The notes under the pieces are model-generated. The model was not told the origin of the DNA, did not search any database, and was given only the letters and a program-made list of their open reading frames with translations. From IMG/VR virus record IMGVR_UViG_3300045988_001638, positions 1-5,446 of that record: a stretch of 5,446 nucleotides of DNA; one strand, 5' to 3'. The translations under genes and the position numbers were made by a program. Below, in pieces: positions 1-5,446 of the stretch. Each line of letters opens with the position of its first letter. Within the stretch, counting starts at the first letter, position 1. The stretch comes from a virus.

Positions 1-55
1 AGAGTTTATTACAGACAAAGGAAAAGAATATCGTGATTACAACTATTTAAACGCA
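1..55. repeat. Terminal redundancy, copy 1. Identical to 5392-5446, marking a closed circular genome of 5,391 nt.
   Basis: Base-by-base comparison shows agagtttattacagacaaaggaaaagaatatcgtgattacaactatttaaacgca at both 1-55 and 5392-5446 (offset 5391). The reading frame is continuous across the junction. A 55-nt overlap is typical of a k-mer overlap in a circular assembly. Confidence 0.95.
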
Positions 56-1204
56 CACTTCGATATAACAGCAGCCAATAAAGGCTTAAAATACACCTAC
101 AAAACAAGCACACAACAAATACAAGGAAAACTAAGCGGATTCGCAAAATTGAATGAGCCTAATTCATTACATGAAGTTCCATTAACACAATTCGATACAC
201 TAAGAGAAAATATCCTAAAGGCAGGTAAAGAAATATATTCACTAGAGGCATCAACAAATGATTTAACACTAGCAACCTTAGACAGAAATACGGAAACAGG
301 GCAACTCTATGCAGCAACAGCAGGAAATGGATTATTATTAAAAACATATCAATCTGATAAATTTAACAACTGGATTTCAACAGAATGGATAGATGGAGAA
401 AATGGAATCAGTGCAGTAACAGCAATTAGTACAGCGGGGGATAAATTCACAATAGACCAGTTAAATCTGTCGAAAAAAGTATACGACATGTTGAACCGAA
501 TAGCAATAAGTGGTGGGACATATCAAGATTGGGTAGAAACCGTGTATACATCAGGCTGGGAAATGCACACAGAAACACCCGTATATGAGGGTGGAATGTC
601 AGCGGAAATAGAATTCCAAGAAGTAGTAAGTACAGCAGCAACAACAGAGGAAGCACTAGGATCACTAGCAGGAAGAGGTAAAGATACAAATAAGAAAGGC
701 GGACAATTACACATAAAAATAAAAGAGCCATGTTATATCATGGGAATAGTAAGTATAACACCACGAGTAGATTACTGCCAAGGGAATGACTGGGATATAT
801 TCCAGCTAAAGACAATGGACGATCTACACAAGCCAGCACTAGATGGAATAGGCTATCAAGACTTACTTACTTACGAAATGGCAAGTTGGGGAGGCACTGA
901 AAATGCGAAATCGGTGGGAAAACAACCAGCATGGATAAATTACATGACAAACTGGAATAAGACTTACGGAACTTTCGCAGAACAAGGGAATGAGGCATTT
1001 ATGGTACTAAATAGATACTATGAACCAATTAACGGAACTTTTGATTCAGGAAAAGAAATAGACGCAAGTACATACATAGACCCAAGTAAGTATAACTATA
1101 TATTCGCTGAAACAAATGCAGAAAGCCAAAATTTTTGGGTACAACTAGGATTCGCAATCGAAGCAAGGAGAATGATGTCAGCAAAACAAATACCAAACTT
1201 ATAA
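1..1204 (+). CDS. VP1: Microviridae major capsid protein (VP1 / F-like), C-terminal part. Continues 4700-5446 across the circular junction.
   Basis: Frame 2 is open from position 2, with no stop before the TTG at 149 that the track used as a start. It is in phase with 4700-5446 because 5391 is divisible by 3. Position 1 is the third base of a Val codon. Stop TAA at 1202-1204. The joined ORF is 692+1204 = 1896 nt, or 631 aa. That size and the sequence character fit the large VP1 of non-phiX microviruses. Confidence 0.92.
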   Translation, partial: EFITDKGKEYRDYNYLNAHFDITAANKGLKYTYKTSTQQIQGKLSGFAKLNEPNSLHEVPLTQFDTLRENILKAGKEIYSLEASTNDLTLATLDRNTETGQLYAATAGNGLLLKTYQSDKFNNWISTEWIDGENGISAVTAISTAGDKFTIDQLNLSKKVYDMLNRIAISGGTYQDWVETVYTSGWEMHTETPVYEGGMSAEIEFQEVVSTAATTEEALGSLAGRGKDTNKKGGQLHIKIKEPCYIMGIVSITPRVDYCQGNDWDIFQLKTMDDLHKPALDGIGYQDLLTYEMASWGGTENAKSVGKQPAWINYMTNWNKTYGTFAEQGNEAFMVLNRYYEPINGTFDSGKEIDASTYIDPSKYNYIFAETNAESQNFWVQLGFAIEARRMMSAKQIPNL

Positions 1205-1206
1205 CT

Positions 1207-1524
1207 ATGAAAAGAAAAATACTAACAATAAAACCAACAACAGGATTCATACCAGTGTATGACGGTGAAAGCATTGAAACAAAAGTCGAAAGAGTCGTCC
1301 AGAACAAAGAACCAATCGAAGACGGTGCTGAAATAATATACACTGAAAAAAAACAAGGAGTGCAACCACAATACGACATAAGAACCGACAAATGGGAAAT
1401 AGCACAAAAAGCAATGGGTCTAGCACACGCAAACAGAATAGCCAAATCAGACGGAAGTTTAGACAAATGGCAACAAGAACAAGAACAACAGCAGCAACAG
1501 CAGCAACAACAAAAAAATGAATGA
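1207..1524 (+). CDS. Small microvirus protein of 105 aa with a C-terminal poly-Q tail. Function unknown; a VP3-like internal scaffolding role is possible from its position but unproven.
   Basis: The first ATG in this frame is at 1207, 2 nt after the VP1 stop, in the junction TAACTATG. The same junction precedes VP1 at 4700. The track start at 1135 is a TTG that overlaps VP1 by 70 nt and is less likely. The product MKRKILTIKPTTGFIPVYDGE...DIRTDKWEIAQKAM...QQEQEQQQQQQQQQKNE is hydrophilic, with codon usage like its neighbours. Stop TGA at 1522-1524. Confidence 0.7.
   Translation: MKRKILTIKPTTGFIPVYDGESIETKVERVVQNKEPIEDGAEIIYTEKKQGVQPQYDIRTDKWEIAQKAMGLAHANRIAKSDGSLDKWQQEQEQQQQQQQQQKNE
1471..1512 (+). 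repeat. In-frame CAR/GAA trinucleotide tract encoding QQEQEQQQQQQQQQ; nine uninterrupted Gln codons at 1486-1512.
   Basis: Codons read directly: caa caa gaa caa gaa caa cag cag caa cag cag caa caa caa. The tract sits at the 3' end of ORF 1207-1524. Confidence 0.9.
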
Positions 1525-1552
1525 TAATTAACACCGAAATATCGGTATGTGC

Positions 1553-1579
1553 ATAAGGGGTTTTTATACCCCTTATTTA
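1553..1579 (+). terminator. Hairpin followed by a short T run. Possible weak, attenuating intrinsic terminator after the capsid and small-protein genes.
   Basis: 9-bp stem ATAAGGGGT (1553-1561) / ACCCCTTAT (1568-1576) with loop TTTTAT, followed by only TT. A smaller hairpin ACCGA/TCGGT lies at 1533-1546 just upstream. Confidence 0.4.
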
Positions 1580-1582
1580 ACA

Positions 1583-1607
1583 AGTAGCGAGTTAATATTA
1601 CGCTACT
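1583..1607 (+). promoter_or_regulatory. Stem-loop carrying TAATATTAC in the loop. Candidate rolling-circle (+)-strand origin and nick site.
   Basis: Perfect 7-bp stem AGTAGCG (1583-1589) / CGCTACT (1601-1607) with 11-nt loop AGTTAATATTA. TAATATTAC occupies 1593-1601, and its last C is the first base of the 3' arm. It lies on the + strand, which is both the coding strand and the presumed virion strand, in an intergenic region. Confidence 0.5.
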
Positions 1608-1634
1608 GCACATTATTATCTAGTTACTAACAAT

Positions 1635-1651
1635 CGCTTTTCAAAAAAGCG
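1635..1651 (+). other. Short hairpin immediately upstream of VP2.
   Basis: Stem CGCTTTT (1635-1641) / AAAAGCG (1645-1651) with a 3-nt loop, 15 nt before the VP2 ATG. Confidence 0.5.
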
Positions 1652-1666
1652 CGAAAATCAATCACT

Positions 1667-2713
1667 ATGGGATTAAATGCAGGTAAAATGCTAGGAAGTG
1701 CAGCGCTAGACGGACTGACGGGAGGCGTCGGAGGACTAGTCTCAGGAGCAGTAGGAGGAATAGGCTCACTATTAGGCTTAGGCTCAAGAAAGGAAAAGAA
1801 AGCACGAGAAGCCGAAGAAAGAGAACATCAAAGGCAACTTGAATACATGGCTCTACAAGCAAAATATAACAAAGAACAGGCAGAATATTCCACAGAACTC
1901 GGCAAGGAAATGTGGGATTATACCAACTTTGAGAATCAAAAAAAACATTTGGAAGCAGCAGGACTGAATCCAGCACTACTATACGGAAACAGTGGCGGTG
2001 GCGGTGGAAGTGCAGCAGGCAGCGGAAGTGCAGCAGGCGTAGGGTTGCCATCATCAACAGGGGTAGGAATGGGCATCCAGTGGGAACAAATGGAAGCTCA
2101 AAAAGAGCTGGCTAAGGCAGAAGCCGCGAAAACAAACGCGGAGGCAGCTAAATTAATGACAACAGACACTGAAAAAGTTAAGTCAGAAACTGAAAAAAAT
2201 AAACAAGATATCAAAGAATCAGAAAAGAGAATAGAATCACTTACAAGTCAAACTCACAAAATAAACGAAGAAAGCAAAGGTATAGAATTTAACAATTATC
2301 TGAACGAACTAAGAAAAAACATCAAGCTGAGTGGAGAAGTAAATGGCAAGACAGTATGGACTAAGGGATTTGACGAGATTTTCAAGGAAAATGAACTACA
2401 AAGAATGTTAGCAGACTACGGAATATCACAGAAAGAATACCAAGAGGCAAAAAATGACAAGGAAGTAGCTATGAGGCTATCTGATGCTCTCAATGAGATT
2501 GCTAACGGAAAAATAGCGGTATTCGGCAAAATGGTAGAAGAGGCCCAACAGGCAAAAAATGAAACAGCTATACAAAAATGGCAGTTCGAACAGGACAAAG
2601 CACTCAGTGATTTAATCAACGATATAGGTGGAGAAGGAAAATACGGAAAACTACTAACAAAGATAATCAGCGCAATATTTAGCAAATGGCGCGGATATGG
2701 AGGAAAAAAATAA
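1667..2713 (+). CDS. VP2: Microviridae VP2 (minor capsid / DNA pilot protein, functional analogue of phiX174 H).
   Basis: 348 aa. N-terminal Gly/small-residue hydrophobic segment GSAALDGLTGGVGGLVSGAVGGIGSLLGLG (nt 1694-1783). The block WDYTNFENQKKHLEAAGLNPALLYG (GLNPALLYG at 1961-1987) is characteristic of gokusho/alpa-type VP2. This is followed by a poly-Gly/Ser/Ala linker and then a long K/E/Q-rich region that looks coiled-coil. It sits between the capsid module and Rep. Stop TAA at 2711-2713. Confidence 0.85.
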   Translation: MGLNAGKMLGSAALDGLTGGVGGLVSGAVGGIGSLLGLGSRKEKKAREAEEREHQRQLEYMALQAKYNKEQAEYSTELGKEMWDYTNFENQKKHLEAAGLNPALLYGNSGGGGGSAAGSGSAAGVGLPSSTGVGMGIQWEQMEAQKELAKAEAAKTNAEAAKLMTTDTEKVKSETEKNKQDIKESEKRIESLTSQTHKINEESKGIEFNNYLNELRKNIKLSGEVNGKTVWTKGFDEIFKENELQRMLADYGISQKEYQEAKNDKEVAMRLSDALNEIANGKIAVFGKMVEEAQQAKNETAIQKWQFEQDKALSDLINDIGGEGKYGKLLTKIISAIFSKWRGYGGKK

Positions 2714-3633
2714 TGTGCCTTTATACAAAATACATAACAAACCCAAAATACTTGCCAAATAAGAAAAATAATTACAGTCCGCCTGCCTGCAAAGACAGGC
2801 GGTTGTTATATGTGCCAGTGAAATGCGGAAAATGTATGGAGTGCAGAAAACAAAATCAAAGTCAGTGGGTAGTAAGGCTCTCGGAAGAAATCAGGAAAGA
2901 ACCTGAAGCACTATTTGTAACACTAACATTCAACGAAGAAAGTTACAAGGAGTTAGCGACCATCACGAAAAATGAAAATGAAATGTGTAGAATAGCACTA
3001 AGAAGAATGCTTGAAAACTACAGAGTACAGAATAAACGCACGATAAAACACTGGGTAGCAACAGAACTAGGCGATGACGGTAGGATACATATGCACGGAA
3101 TATTCTGGACTAACAAGGAAGTAATAGAAAAATATTGGAAATACGGCTTTATATTTATTGGAACATGGGTAAATGAACAGACAATATTTTACATCACAAA
3201 ATACATTATGAAAGTATCAACAGTAGACAAGAATTTCACACCAAAAATACTATGCAGCAAAGGAATAGGAAGTAGCTATCTCAAAAGAGGTGATGTAAGG
3301 AACAACAGATACAAAAAAAATGACACAGACGAATCATACAGGCTAAGGGACGGCAGAAAAATATCACTACCTGATTATTACAAGAGAAAAATATACTCAG
3401 AAGAAGAACGGGAAAAACTTTGGATCGAAAAACAAGAAAGAGGTTACCGCTATATTATGGGCGAAAAAGTAGACGTAGACAACGAACAAGAATATTTCAG
3501 TATACTCAATTTCTATCGTGAGAAAGCAAAACGAATCCTGAACGAAAAACCGCAAGATTGGGACAAAGAAAAGCACAAAAAACAACTTAAAAAACTTAAA
3601 GAATACAGAAAAAGATTTAAAAGCGGTTGTTAA
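2713..3633 (+). CDS. VP4: Microviridae VP4 replication initiator (HUH rolling-circle endonuclease, phiX174 A-like).
   Basis: Start chosen at ATG 2713, which overlaps the VP2 stop (TAATG) and has GGAGG at 2699-2703, 9 nt upstream. The track start at 2686 lies inside VP2. Motifs: CGKCMECR (2824-2847), RCR motif I LFVTLTF (2911-2931), HUH motif HMHGIFW (His codons 3088-3090 and 3094-3096), and two-tyrosine motif III YITKYIMK (3190-3213; compare phiX174 A YVAKYVNK). Stop TAA at 3631-3633. Confidence 0.92.
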   Translation: MCLYTKYITNPKYLPNKKNNYSPPACKDRRLLYVPVKCGKCMECRKQNQSQWVVRLSEEIRKEPEALFVTLTFNEESYKELATITKNENEMCRIALRRMLENYRVQNKRTIKHWVATELGDDGRIHMHGIFWTNKEVIEKYWKYGFIFIGTWVNEQTIFYITKYIMKVSTVDKNFTPKILCSKGIGSSYLKRGDVRNNRYKKNDTDESYRLRDGRKISLPDYYKRKIYSEEEREKLWIEKQERGYRYIMGEKVDVDNEQEYFSILNFYREKAKRILNEKPQDWDKEKHKKQLKKLKEYRKRFKSGC

Positions 3634-3647
3634 TAACCGCTTTTTTT
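3619..3647 (+). terminator. Rho-independent terminator closing the single + strand transcription unit.
   Basis: 10-bp stem AAAAGCGGTT (3619-3628) / AACCGCTTTT (3635-3644) with loop GTTAAT, which contains the VP4 stop codon. The stem runs into a T7 tract (3641-3647). Confidence 0.8.
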
Positions 3648-3648
3648 G

Positions 3649-3722
3649 TGTTGATAAGTGTGTAAAATCGGTTGATAAGTATGCAAAATCGGTTAATAAA
3701 CATGTTGATAACTTGTTGATAA
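3649..3722 (-). repeat. Left iteron cluster: five phased copies of TGTTGATAA-like 9-mers (TTATCAACA on the minus strand).
   Basis: TGTTGATAA at 3649-3657, 3703-3711 and 3714-3722. GGTTGATAA at 3670-3678. GGTTAATAA at 3691-3699. Start spacing is 21, 21, 12 and 11 nt. The middle copies sit in a 21-nt tandem duplication (3661-3681 vs 3682-3702, 17/21 identical). Confidence 0.85.
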
Positions 3723-3815
3723 AAAAATAACTTTTTAACACTTTATTAAGATTTGATTTATATATAGAAAAAAGATTTATATTTCAAAATTTAAAGATAT
3801 GAAGTTATAAAAAAG

Positions 3816-3879
3816 TTATGAACAGAGTTATTAACAAGATAAGTGGCTATATTTCAGGCTATTAACATAGTTATGAACA
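3816..3879 (+). repeat. Right iteron cluster: four copies of TTAT(G/T)AACA in the opposite orientation to the left cluster.
   Basis: TTATGAACA at 3816-3824 and 3871-3879, each inside the exact 12-mer AGTTATGAACAG (3814-3825 and 3869-3880). TTATTAACA at 3828-3836. cTATTAACA at 3859-3867. Start spacing is 12, 31 and 12 nt. Confidence 0.8.
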
Positions 3880-3901
3880 GTTTCAACAGCCTATTATTAT
3901 C

Positions 3902-3915
3902 ATATATATATATAT
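3902..3915. repeat. (AT)7 dinucleotide repeat within an extremely AT-rich stretch.
   Basis: atatatatatatat read directly. The flanking 12-mer TATATAGAAAAA occurs at both 3761-3772 and 3919-3930. Confidence 0.9.
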
Positions 3916-4007
3916 GTTTATATAGAAAAATATAAATATTATAATGATAGTACGGTTTCCATGCAACATCCATGTATCAGGAAGTGAGAGCCAAATAATA
4001 ATTTTTA

Positions 4008-4172
4008 CGCGGGCAAGGTGTCAACATCCGAGGGAAGCTCGCACTCTGTGCGCCGGAATCAGGCTACATGTCACACGGCAGCACTAAGTTATCTAAGGTG
4101 CTAACGCTATCGGGGCTACGCGCCCCTATACCCCTCGTACGCAACATAGTTGCGATTATCTATGCCTACGGC
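4008..4172 (+). other. GC-rich, hairpin-dense non-coding island. Candidate complementary-strand (ssDNA) origin or structured ncRNA; class unknown.
   Basis: By hand count, 93 of 165 nt are G/C (about 56%), against a very AT-rich context. Local hairpins: CGCAC/GTGCG (4040-4052), AGCAC/GTGCT (4080-4102), GGGGC/GCCCC (4112-4126) and CGCAAC/GTTGCG (4140-4154). A possible enclosing helix CGAGGG (4029-4034) / CCCTCG (4132-4137) would give a four-way junction. There is no convincing ORF. Confidence 0.45.
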
Positions 4173-4185
4173 AATTTTAACTAAA

Positions 4186-4222
4186 TATATTTGGTACTTT
4201 CGGAAAAAATACAGTACATTTG
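4186..4222 (+). promoter_or_regulatory. Bacteroidetes-type promoter (-33 TTTG / -7 TAnnTTTG) driving the whole gene set.
   Basis: TACATTTG at 4215-4222 matches the -7 consensus TAnnTTTG. TTTG at 4190-4193 lies 21 nt upstream of it, within the reported 19-21 nt spacing. A second TAnnTTTG match (TATATTTG, 4186-4193) overlaps the -33 element. The first ORF starts 30 nt downstream at 4252. Confidence 0.55.
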
Positions 4223-4251
4223 TGCAAAACAAATAAATATATAGGGAAAAA

Positions 4252-4464
4252 ATGAAAATTGATGAAAAGTACAAAAAACTGATTCGTGAAATCACAATTG
4301 CAGTATTATCAGCTATCCTGACATGGTTAGGAGTAAGTTGCACCAACATGTTGAGTATTCAGAAAAATGTGAAAGAAAGCAACATGAAAACAGAGAATAA
4401 GACAGACGGGAAAGTAAGTGCTGACAGCACAAGTATTAATTTATTTAACAAGGAGGACAAATAA
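4252..4464 (+). CDS. Small membrane or lipoprotein-like protein (70 aa), function unknown.
   Basis: ATG at 4252 is the first start after the promoter. The product has a charged N-terminus MKIDEKYKKLIRE, a hydrophobic segment ITIAVLSAILTWLGVS (nt 4291-4338), then Cys30 (4339-4341) and a hydrophilic 40-aa tail. Stop TAA at 4462-4464 overlaps the next ATG. Confidence 0.6.
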   Translation: MKIDEKYKKLIREITIAVLSAILTWLGVSCTNMLSIQKNVKESNMKTENKTDGKVSADSTSINLFNKEDK

Positions 4465-4697
4465 TGAATTTAAATGAATTATTTAAAATCAGACCAACAA
4501 GTGAAGAACAAAATGATTTTATAACAACAGTAGGGGAACATCTGGCTACAGAGAAACATTTCAAAACACGTGAAGAAGCAGAAAAATACATAGAGACACC
4601 GCAATGGGATATGATTCTAGCTGTGATGGCAGAAATGTTAACCATTCACGAAGAAGTAAAGCACAAAGAAGATATTGAAAATACTAAAAATAAATAA
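4464..4697 (+). CDS. Small acidic, predicted helical protein (77 aa), function unknown.
   Basis: ATG at 4464 overlaps the upstream stop (TAATG). AGGAGG at 4451-4456 lies 7 nt upstream. The product MNLNELFKIRPTSEEQNDFITTVGEHLATEKHFKTREEAEKYIETPQWDMILAVMAEM... resembles small conserved ORFs I recall seeing next to capsid genes in gut microviruses; this is unverified memory. Stop TAA at 4695-4697. Confidence 0.65.
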   Translation: MNLNELFKIRPTSEEQNDFITTVGEHLATEKHFKTREEAEKYIETPQWDMILAVMAEMLTIHEEVKHKEDIENTKNK

Positions 4698-4699
4698 CT

Positions 4700-5446
4700 A
4701 TGACAATAAAAAAATCAATAGGGAAAAATACAATAGGAGGCGGAAGTAAAATGACCGTCGACCTACACACGTACAACAGAAGTACACACAATCTATCATA
4801 CGCGTGGAGAAGTAGCATGGGGGTAGGAACACTAGTTCCATGCATGAAAATAGTGGGATTACCAGGAGATACATTTGATATTGCAATAGATACAAGAGTA
4901 AATACACATCCAACAGTAGGCCCACTATTCGGTAGTTACAAATTACAAGTAGACATATTCACGGCGCCATTCCGATTATATAACGCGATGCTGCATAACA
5001 ACGCATTAAATGTTGGTATGGATATGAGCAAGGTAAAATTGCCTCAAATAAAAATAAAAATAAATGAAAAGGACAATCCTATCGACTCAACACATTTAAC
5101 ATTCTCATCATCAAGTATATTAGCATACTTGGGAATAAGAGGATTTTCAAACCAAATCAAAGAGACAGAAGTGACAATACCAAACGCAGTACCATTACTG
5201 ACATATTGGGATATTTTCAAAAACTATTACGCAAACAAACAGGAAGAAAAATGCAAGATACTAATGAAAGGCAATAAGGCCTACACAGTTGAAGATAAAT
5301 TGACTTATAACCACGTCGGCGAAACAATAGTTACGGGAGGTTATTTCATAATTCCAGGAGCAAATATAAACAGCAAAATAAAAATAGAAGTAGAGTTTAT
5401 TACAGACAAAGGAAAAGAATATCGTGATTACAACTATTTAAACGCA
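4700..5446 (+). CDS. VP1: Microviridae major capsid protein VP1, N-terminal 249 codons. Runs off the window end and continues at position 1. Absent from the supplied ORF track.
   Basis: I translated frame 2 from ATG 4700 by hand and found no stop through 5446. The product begins MTIKKSIGKNTIGGGSKMTVDLHTYNRSTHNLSYAWRSSMGVGTLVPCMKIVGLPGDTFDIAIDTRVNTHPTVGPLFGSYKLQVDIFTAPFRLYN...LLTYWDIFKNYYANKQEE. The blocks STHNLS...GTLVP...LPGDTFDI, GPLFGSYK.Q.D.F..P.RLY and YWDIF.NYY.N are hallmark N-terminal VP1/F-family blocks. An alternative in-frame start is ATG 4751, preceded by AGGAGG at 4735-4740. Confidence 0.9.
   Translation, partial: MTIKKSIGKNTIGGGSKMTVDLHTYNRSTHNLSYAWRSSMGVGTLVPCMKIVGLPGDTFDIAIDTRVNTHPTVGPLFGSYKLQVDIFTAPFRLYNAMLHNNALNVGMDMSKVKLPQIKIKINEKDNPIDSTHLTFSSSSILAYLGIRGFSNQIKETEVTIPNAVPLLTYWDIFKNYYANKQEEKCKILMKGNKAYTVEDKLTYNHVGETIVTGGYFIIPGANINSKIKIEVEFITDKGKEYRDYNYLNA
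5392..5446. repeat. Terminal redundancy, copy 2 (identical to 1-55).
   Basis: Exact 55/55 identity with the window start. Confidence 0.95.

Follow-up and report, generated by a model that had tools for sequence, protein, structure and literature searches.

A geminivirus-like loop motif and a conserved intergenic module, a candidate phiX-type replication origin, in a lineage of microviruses

Where does a microvirus outside the phiX174 group begin the synthesis of its viral strand? This question is raised by a stem-loop in the IMG/VR virus record IMGVR_UViG_3300045988_001638, of which we analyzed positions 1 to 5,446 (5,446 nucleotides, nt; hereafter the window, or WIN in comparisons among genomes, with all coordinates referring to this whole stretch). 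The window covers a single circular genome, that of a microvirus, 5391 nt in length, and repeats its first 55 nt at its end (1-55 = 5392-5446); every gene is on the plus strand. A preliminary description had noticed that the non-coding region between a small open reading frame (ORF) and VP2, the DNA pilot protein gene, contains a hairpin displaying the origin nonanucleotide of geminiviruses, and had proposed that VP4, the replication initiator, nicks this loop in the manner of the Rep proteins of CRESS-DNA viruses. It had also supposed that the origins of non-phiX microviruses are undefined; consistent with this, we found no viral-strand origin outside the phiX174 group in the searchable literature.

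The sequence and coordinates given for the stem-loop were exact. The structure, here called hairpin C, lies at 1583-1607 on the plus strand, where AGTAGCG (1583-1589) and CGCTACT (1601-1607) form a 7-bp stem around the 11-nt loop AGTTAATATTA (1590-1600). The exact geminivirus nonanucleotide TAATATTAC occupies 1593-1601 of the same strand, and its last base is the first base of the 3' stem arm. Its core, TAATATTA, is its own reverse complement and is thus displayed on both strands. The location was likewise as described: the plus-strand genes leave two non-coding regions, 1525-1666 (142 nt) and 3634-4251, and hairpin C lies in the former.

Folded as DNA, the 25-mer of hairpin C reached -5.5 kcal/mol (z = -3.0), a value equalled by 3 of 200 shuffles. 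The entire region 1525-1666 was far more structured, at -26.5 kcal/mol (z = -6.2), which none of 200 shuffles matched. On the plus strand, this fold comprised hairpin A (1533-1546) and a fork whose outer stem (ATGTGC 1547-1552 paired with GCACAT 1608-1613) encloses both hairpin B (1553-1576, with a 9-bp GC-rich stem) and hairpin C. Hairpin D (1635-1651), described below, belongs to this fold as well. The same fork layout was present with other sequences in the relatives that we call type 2 (GAGTA/TACTC; GAGCA/TGCTC in L009). The nonanucleotide occurred once in the window, counting both strands. Shuffles contained 0.12 copies on average, and because at least one copy arose in 19 of 200, the 9-mer alone is not significant; the preliminary description had itself judged it not very rare in such a genome. 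Across 127 related genomes (666 kb), it occurred 28 times at scattered positions. Inspection by eye of the sequence flanking hairpin C revealed no iterons or other repeats. The possibility that hairpin C is an intrinsic terminator was rejected, as a scan of 1525-1666 returned no plus-strand site and the hairpin is followed by GCACATTATTAT, with no T tract.

Conservation of the hairpin and of its loop nonamer in relatives had been set beforehand as tests of the origin proposal, and the two came out differently. Relatives were collected from GenBank (MG945660), IMG/VR, metagenome contigs, and a DNA-pattern scan of IMG/VR. Conserved gene order made it possible to take from them the sequence that separates the small ORF from VP2, giving 68 homologous regions, 56 of them distinct, from genomes with a VP4 identity of 37-100%. 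At the hairpin C site, 82% of 55 distinct regions had a perfect 6-bp stem, compared with 1% of shuffles, and the stem existed in four mutually compensating versions (GTAGCG/CGCTAC, GTTGCG/CGCAAC, TGTGCG/CGCACA, and CACACG/CGTGTG). G·T versus A·C stem mismatches, judged by eye as an indicator of the strand that folds, amounted to few events. Hairpin C is therefore a real structure maintained by selection, and it is a lineage-specific elaboration in the gut clades.

The loop was much more variable. Measured on the 6-bp stem, its length ranged from 4 to 11 nt across the homologous regions. The window and L006/L047, which differ from it by one base over 1583-1666, share AGTTAATATTA; L012 and L013 (~70% VP4 identity) carry AGTTATTTATA and AGTTATCTATA. 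Type-2 genomes (VP2 85-89% and VP4 ~55% identical) have GGTA. One large clade has TACTTCGGTA, in which extra pairing leaves TTCG, and another has TAA-T3-5-TA forms, in which extra pairing leaves ~3-5 nt, while the most distant members and most environmental contigs have no real hairpin. Among the 56 distinct regions, the exact nonamer was present at the homologous site only in WIN, L006, and L047. The corresponding 9-mers were TATTTATAC and TATCTATAC in the next closest VP4 relatives (~70%) and mostly nnnnGGTAC elsewhere. Moreover, five of the nine positions (TA....TAC) are fixed within the lineage of the window for other reasons, so that a match to the nonamer requires just four AT-rich positions. 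We thus judge the TAATATTAC loop to be coincidental and confined to one terminal lineage.

Scanning IMG/VR with the hairpin pattern GCGNNTTAATATTACGC returned L006 and 19 contigs, most of them far above microvirus size, and with a looser pattern specific to the clade, L006, L012, and L013 were the only matches. Pattern scanning of IMG/VR also caught a near-identical stretch of ~120 nt (GAGAATCTGTACCGGACACACACTCGATGACTGCC...GGCAGGGGAGAAGCGCGAAAC) in L121, L122, L133, and ~30 other large IMG/VR contigs, mostly from one gut dataset; this stretch is unrelated to the microvirus module described below.

What relatives share most consistently is a linear block that begins at the last bases of the nonamer. 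We defined it from an alignment of the regions anchored at their 3' ends and a MAFFT alignment (A3) of eleven representatives. In the window, it spans 28 nt (1597-1624) and reads ATTACGCTACT|GCACAT|TATTATCTAGT (ACTAGATAATAATGTGCAGTAGCGTAAT on the minus strand), with the consensus TACG-N14-TAT(C/G)nA(G/C)T over 1599-1624. TACG (1599-1602), TAT (1617-1619), A1622, and T1624 are invariant, and TACG through TAT(C/G) always measures 22 nt, both ends included. The block was present with this invariant spacing in 55 of the 56 distinct regions (VP4 identity 37-100%). Approximately 10 bases beyond it lies hairpin D (1635-1651, plus strand; CGCTTTT-CAA-AAAAGCG), which is kept in sequence and also shows compensatory changes (CGATTTT/AAAATCG, CTCTTTCTT/AAGAAAGAG, and TGCTTTCTC/GAGAAAGCA). 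Hairpin D is followed by an invariant CGAAA (1652-1656, plus strand), ahead of the VP2 start codon at 1667.

These elements form a module consisting of the block (28-30 nt; 1597-1626 in the window), a short spacer, hairpin D, and CGAAA. An IMG/VR pattern that combined just the block's right end with the right half of hairpin D retrieved at least 42 further microvirus-sized contigs with block, hairpin D, and CGAAA, from marine and many other environments. The common form among the matches listed was GGTACGCATGTGTTCTTATATATCAAGTA-N8-12-CGCTTTT-AAA-AAAAGCG-CGAAAA-ATG. Microviruses from animal faeces in GenBank also carried the module upstream of the pilot-protein gene. In all, the module is present in more than 100 genomes of microviruses, sampled from the gut and from the environment. 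Most block-bearing genomes outside the gut clades had the linear block and hairpin D without a sizeable hairpin C. The block is the most widely conserved non-coding sequence that we found in the group, and the 3' arm of hairpin C is the outer end of this old, widespread module, of which we found no description in the searchable literature.

We compared the block with the phiX174 origin as read from RefSeq, CCCCCAACTTG^ATATTAATAACACTATAGACCAC, annotated at 4306 with the nick at 4305/4306. The phiX174 origin is tripartite and 30 nt long: its nick end and its distal end are conserved, and the AT-rich middle varies. Plasmids of the pC194/pUB110 type share the nick core CTTG^ATA. Read in reverse complement, the block resembles the phiX174 core CAACTTG^ATATTAAT (CAACTTG^ATATTAATAAC). 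In its common form, ACTTGATATATAAGAACAC aligns with ACTTGATAT-TAATAACAC, a similarity equalled by 0.06% of shuffles (p = 0.0006, both strands allowed); in the window, AACTAGATAATAAT aligns with AACTTGATATTAAT at 12 of 14 positions (p = 0.04). An nhmmer profile built from 85 block instances was used to scan both strands of phiX174, Chp2, SpV4, and phiMH2K. The best match of the whole search, although weak (E = 1.1), was phiX174 4312-4301 on the minus strand, spanning the nick; the chance that a random best match would land at the phiX origin is ~0.2-0.8%. By homology with phiX174 CTTG^ATA, the predicted nick in the window is ACTAG^ATAAT on the minus strand, between the complements of 1620 and 1619.

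The block is also comparable to the phiX174 origin (30 nt, CAACTTG^ATATTAATAACACTATAGACCAC, cut by gpA) in layout: it is linear and of about the same length, with conserved ends and an AT-rich middle, and it shares the core ACT(T)GATA(T) including the nick dinucleotide. The two initiators are homologous HUH proteins with YxxKY. VP4 (2713-3633, plus strand, with an alternative ATG at 2686; 306-315 amino acids, aa) is indeed the two-tyrosine HUH protein that had been recognized in the preliminary description, with HMH and YITKY motifs and a sole Pfam match to PF23343 (REP_ORF2-G2P domain; E = 1.6e-12). No helicase domain was detectable in VP4. Its HUH plus two-tyrosine (YxxKY) layout is that of phiX174 gpA. 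There are clear differences as well. The phiX174 origin lies on the coding strand inside the initiator gene, whereas the block is intergenic, ~1 kb upstream of VP4 with VP2 between them, and its phiX-like reading is on the strand opposite the genes. No phiX-like core was conserved on the coding strand, in VP4 or elsewhere. The window has CTAG where phiX has CTTG; the distal end of the block, GCGTA(C/A)C, compares with ACTATAGACC in phiX174 and is folded into a hairpin in gut clades; and the block has a second conserved hairpin and CGAAA attached. Double-strand origins of the pC194/pUB110 type share the nick heptamer of the common block form, the comparison here covering the heptamer alone, and their Rep is of the same HUH superfamily; unlike the block, these origins adjoin the rep gene in its orientation.

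The sequences of the window and L012/L013 agree as far as ...CTGCAC(A/G)TTATTAT and then split exactly at the predicted nick, after which the window continues with CTAGTTA, as does L010, and L012/L013 with GAACTA, as in type 2. Rolling-circle nick sites are known recombination junctions. The split has the mosaic pattern expected of such a site; as a single observation, it carries little weight.

We next considered strand orientation, using the AT skew at four-fold sites of the coding strand. This was +0.66 in the window (A 65%, T 13%) and +0.26 to +0.96 in all 42 block-bearing contigs examined, with up to 87% A at these sites in marine relatives. The values were -0.75 for phiX174, -0.35 for Chp2, and -0.40 for SpV4. 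For ssDNA (single-stranded DNA) phages in general, a preference for NNT codons is reported and has been ascribed to deamination of cytosines in the packaged strand (PMC3278643); the A-richness of the block-bearing genomes runs opposite to it. The Bacteroides fragilis microvirus phiHBP1, the only Bacteroides-infecting isolate and a member of another lineage (PMC13064476), lacks the block and had a skew of -0.67. On the contigs of four prophages related to the window, prophage genes had skews of +0.27 to +0.70 and the host genes beside them -0.26 to +0.07. Because phiHBP1 is T-rich and the flanking host genes are not A-rich, the sign of the skew goes with the viral lineage and not with the host. 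Composition thus accords, as a separate line of evidence, with a phiX-like core read opposite the genes. In the simplest mutational reading, which is suggestive only, it is the complement of the coding strand that is single-stranded for part of the time.

Given the conservation and fixed spacing of the block, its phiX-like layout and sequence, the profile match, the catalytic layout of VP4, the composition, and the divergence at the nick, our tentative first choice, somewhat short of probable, is that the locus is a VP4-dependent viral-strand origin of the phiX/pC194 type, read on the non-coding strand, with hairpin C as an accessory fold. In such an origin, the nick core (A)ACT(T/A/C)G^ATA(T/A) would lie at 1624-1614 of the minus strand, the variable AT-rich spacer would come next, and the conserved distal end GCGTA would correspond to the 'key' binding sequence of phiX. 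Hairpin C would incorporate that end in the gut lineages, either in ssDNA or by cruciform extrusion from the duplex. VP4 would bind and cut here, on the minus strand at the position predicted above, and the cut strand would be the packaged strand. The earlier proposal of a VP4 origin in this intergenic region may thus be right as to location, but our reading departs from it in motif, strand, and likely nick position. A broader claim, which we regard as doubtful, is that a large lineage has an inverted, intergenic phiX-type origin at which VP4 nicks, displaces, and packages the mRNA-complementary strand, which would make these viruses negative-sense ssDNA phages. If so, the A-richness of their coding strand would mirror the T-richness of the packaged strand in other ssDNA phages.

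Several observations weigh against this phiX-type origin and its inverted polarity. The module always lies just upstream of a gene and in its orientation, which would equally suit an expression signal. The likeness to phiX174 is not significant for several block variants (p = 0.23 for type 2, 0.12 for L011, and 0.13 for L012); it sits in AT-rich sequence, and the clade variants are not independent of one another. The presumed nick core differs by clade (CTTG, CTAG, CTCG, GTTC), and the profile match in phiX174 has E ~1. As for composition, phiMH2K is also A-rich (+0.31), an unexplained exception to the skew rule. Many marine members have a coding strand poor in both C and T, and plain C-to-T deamination of the complement is not a full explanation for this double pyrimidine depletion; selection favouring a purine-rich strand free of structure may be an alternative explanation. 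In phiHBP1 (L234), a weak block-like sequence, GTACGAACTGCAACAATTATATCAAGAT (~1240-1280; E = 0.16), lies on the coding strand inside the Rep gene, oriented as the block is despite the T-richness of that strand; this match is probably due to chance, and all six CTTGATA heptamers of phiHBP1 are on the non-coding strand. Finally, to our knowledge every characterised microvirus packages the coding-sense strand, and a negative-sense virion would be unprecedented for the family.

Integrated relatives allowed us to examine whether the block serves in integration. Searching bacterial genomes with a VP1 profile identified four, all in Bacteroidales: two in Dysgonomonas genomes (D. macrotermitis DSM 27370 and Dysgonomonas sp. 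521; L228 and L227), one in a Phocaeicola bin, and one in a Paludibacteraceae bin. By this prophage evidence, the group is Alpavirinae-like and infects Bacteroidales, and other Bacteroidota are probably also hosts of the lineage. Bacteroidetes microvirus proviruses flanked by dif-like sites have been reported (Krupovic and Forterre 2011; PMC3091885), and the same viruses and hosts are concerned here. The block could be seen as a dif-like XerC/XerD site in that it also has two arms within 28 nt (11, 6, 11), and its left arm GGTACGCAT recalls the XerC arm of Escherichia coli dif, GGTGCGCAT, in viruses whose relatives integrate into Bacteroidales genomes and for which dif-like flanks have been proposed (PMC3091885). 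However, the block was intact and internal in all four prophages (L227, L228, L231, and L233), which were bounded by other direct repeats, at 8679/14736 in L228 (8679-8709 / 14736-14766), 2669/8671 in L227, 3041/9113 in L231, and 9342/14356 in L233. Both Dysgonomonas boundaries were imperfect direct repeats ~6.0 kb apart, just after VP4, with the dif-like sequence ...CATAAT(A/G)GTAATTAT(A/G)TAAC; no such motif was found in the window within four mismatches. As true attachment repeats follow VP4 and the junctions of all four prophages lie away from the block, we rejected it as an attachment site, and a XerC/XerD role is highly improbable. In L233, the module precedes the VP1 cluster, not VP2, in unchanged orientation, which indicates that the module travels as a unit.

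The main rival of the phiX-type origin is a complementary-strand origin, in which the hairpins and the block would fold in the incoming ssDNA and recruit host priming, by analogy with the G4 origin and the phiX174 primosome site. We consider this unlikely, yet much in the region agrees with it. The 142 nt are exceptionally structured (z = -6.2), and hairpins B, C, and D keep their pairing by compensatory change while their sequences alter, so that intergenic hairpins are conserved as structure, as such an origin would have it. The site is downstream of the capsid gene and a small ORF, as in phiX174 and G4, where hairpin clusters likewise retain their structure through covariation. Covarying intergenic hairpins of other small microviruses have been read in the same way (Olo Ndela et al.; PMC9865509), and a host-recognised signal could persist across divergent phages if all hosts are Bacteroidota. 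However, genomes outside the gut clades mostly keep just the block and hairpin D, and because hairpin C is mostly absent there, the conserved part is a sequence of fixed length, not a structure. The fixed linear sequence is thus the most conserved element here and persists without large hairpins, in contrast to the G4 and phiX174 complementary-strand sites; sites known to work this way tend to be longer and to diverge fast in sequence. The likeness to the phiX viral-strand origin would also be left unexplained. It is less likely that the module is an expression signal for the VP2-VP4 operon, with a promoter or operator in the block and hairpin D and the CGAAA leader acting in translation or mRNA stability. 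The position of the module, 0-40 nt upstream of a start codon and in gene orientation even in L233, would fit this, and most of these start codons lack a Shine-Dalgarno sequence, an absence typical of Bacteroidota. A sigma-70-like TTAATA-16-TATTAT overlaps the loop of hairpin C, but the window has 22 sigma-70-like matches against 17.6 expected by chance, and inspection of the block by eye revealed no match to the Bacteroidota promoter (consensus TTTG at -33, TAnnTTTG at -7). A promoter would also leave unexplained the fixed two-arm layout of 28 nt and the resemblance to the phiX origin.

Lower still do we rate the idea that VP4 nicks the coding strand at the 3' edge of the loop, T1599^A1600, within TACG, as CRESS Reps cut TAATATT^AC. 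The cut would adjoin the start of the invariant TACG, which always lies at the junction of loop and 3' arm in hairpin-bearing clades, and the usual polarity would be kept, with the coding strand packaged. This genome does share with CRESS-DNA origins (TAATATT^AC or NANTATTAC) an identical 9-mer, an 11-nt loop, a GC-containing stem, and an HUH initiator. However, the nonamer is unconserved even in the closest VP4 relatives, its C already belongs to the stem as the first base, and TAC is usually preceded by G (GGTAC). Most relatives have loops of 4-10 nt or no hairpin, and a 4-nt loop, which is frequent, is a poor substrate for a CRESS-type enzyme. TACG has no link to any known HUH nick sequence. 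A CRESS-type origin has iterons next to its stem-loop and a Rep that joins a single-tyrosine HUH domain to a superfamily 3 (SF3) helicase, whereas VP4 is of the phiX type with two tyrosines, has no detectable helicase, and is accompanied by no iterons. On these grounds, the CRESS-type origin that had been proposed for this loop is not supported.

Microviruses of this kind rank with the most abundant ssDNA phages of gut and marine viromes, and our analysis replaces a coincidental motif with a concrete candidate of ~60 nt common to more than 100 genomes. If VP4 cuts the block, origin recognition of the phiX/pC194 superfamily would span the family, and minimal replicons could be designed for uncultured microviruses. 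If it is the non-coding strand that is cut, the polarity assumed for a major phage group would have to be revised, and its mirrored codon bias would be simply explained.

Around this region, the window carries on the plus strand the major capsid gene VP1 (from 4700 across the junction to 1204; 631 aa), the small ORF (1207-1524; 105 aa), which is kept in relatives and lies upstream of the intergenic region, VP2 (1667-2713), directly 3' of the conserved module, VP4, and two further small ORFs (4252-4464 and 4464-4697). The window contains neither tRNA nor tmRNA genes, and an Rfam search of the whole window at a permissive threshold returned nothing relevant. The genome is modular: VP2 and the ORF at 4252-4464 are 85-95% identical to type-2 genomes and VP4 ~55%, and L012/L013 are ~70% identical to the window in VP4 and only 47% in VP2. 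Judging from these identities, the pilot-protein gene appears to have been swapped between lineages as a cassette. The window and L012/L013 share both the 11-nt-loop hairpin and a VP4 clade, which might have suggested that the hairpin type is inherited together with VP4; one exchange of the VP2 cassette explains this, and we did not count it as evidence.

The second non-coding region, after VP4, has elements of its own. A terminator-like hairpin lies at 3619-3644, at the end of VP4. A GC-rich element of ~270 nt (3944-4215) is 92-95% identical to genomes whose VP4 and VP1 are only ~55-65% identical; it is nearly identical across three clades, and its absence from L012 and more distant clades excludes it as an essential origin. 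It contains small hairpins (GGGGC..GCCCC, which is GGGAC..GTCCC in L009, and GCAAC..GTTGC) and had no Rfam or tRNA match. The element behaves like a mobile or recently exchanged cassette and is possibly a non-coding RNA gene. Between it and VP4, 3648-3725 and 3808-3880 contain four copies of GTTGATAA and one of GTTAATAA, two of the copies being within a 21-nt tandem repeat. Read on the other strand, GTTGATAA is TTATCAAC, which has one mismatch to the first eight bases of the DnaA-box consensus TTATCCACA. GTTATGAACAG occurs twice with the related GTTATTAACA between the copies, adjoining an (AT)n tract. The GTTGATAA / GTTATGAACA motifs of this repeat region (3650-3880) recur in relatives of several VP4 clades. 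The repeats look like iterons or DnaA boxes beside an unwinding element, which makes 3650-3880 a possible origin or regulatory region.

Repeats were also observed in the small ORF upstream of the module. Its 3' end (1471-1515) encodes a glutamine-rich run, QQEQEQQQQQQQQQK, in CAA/CAG repeats, and at the same position type-2 relatives (L001-L009) have two to four tandem units of 18-21 nt, for example GAACCACAACAGAATGGA. Given this variation in the repeat unit, the C-terminus of the protein is a hypervariable repeat.

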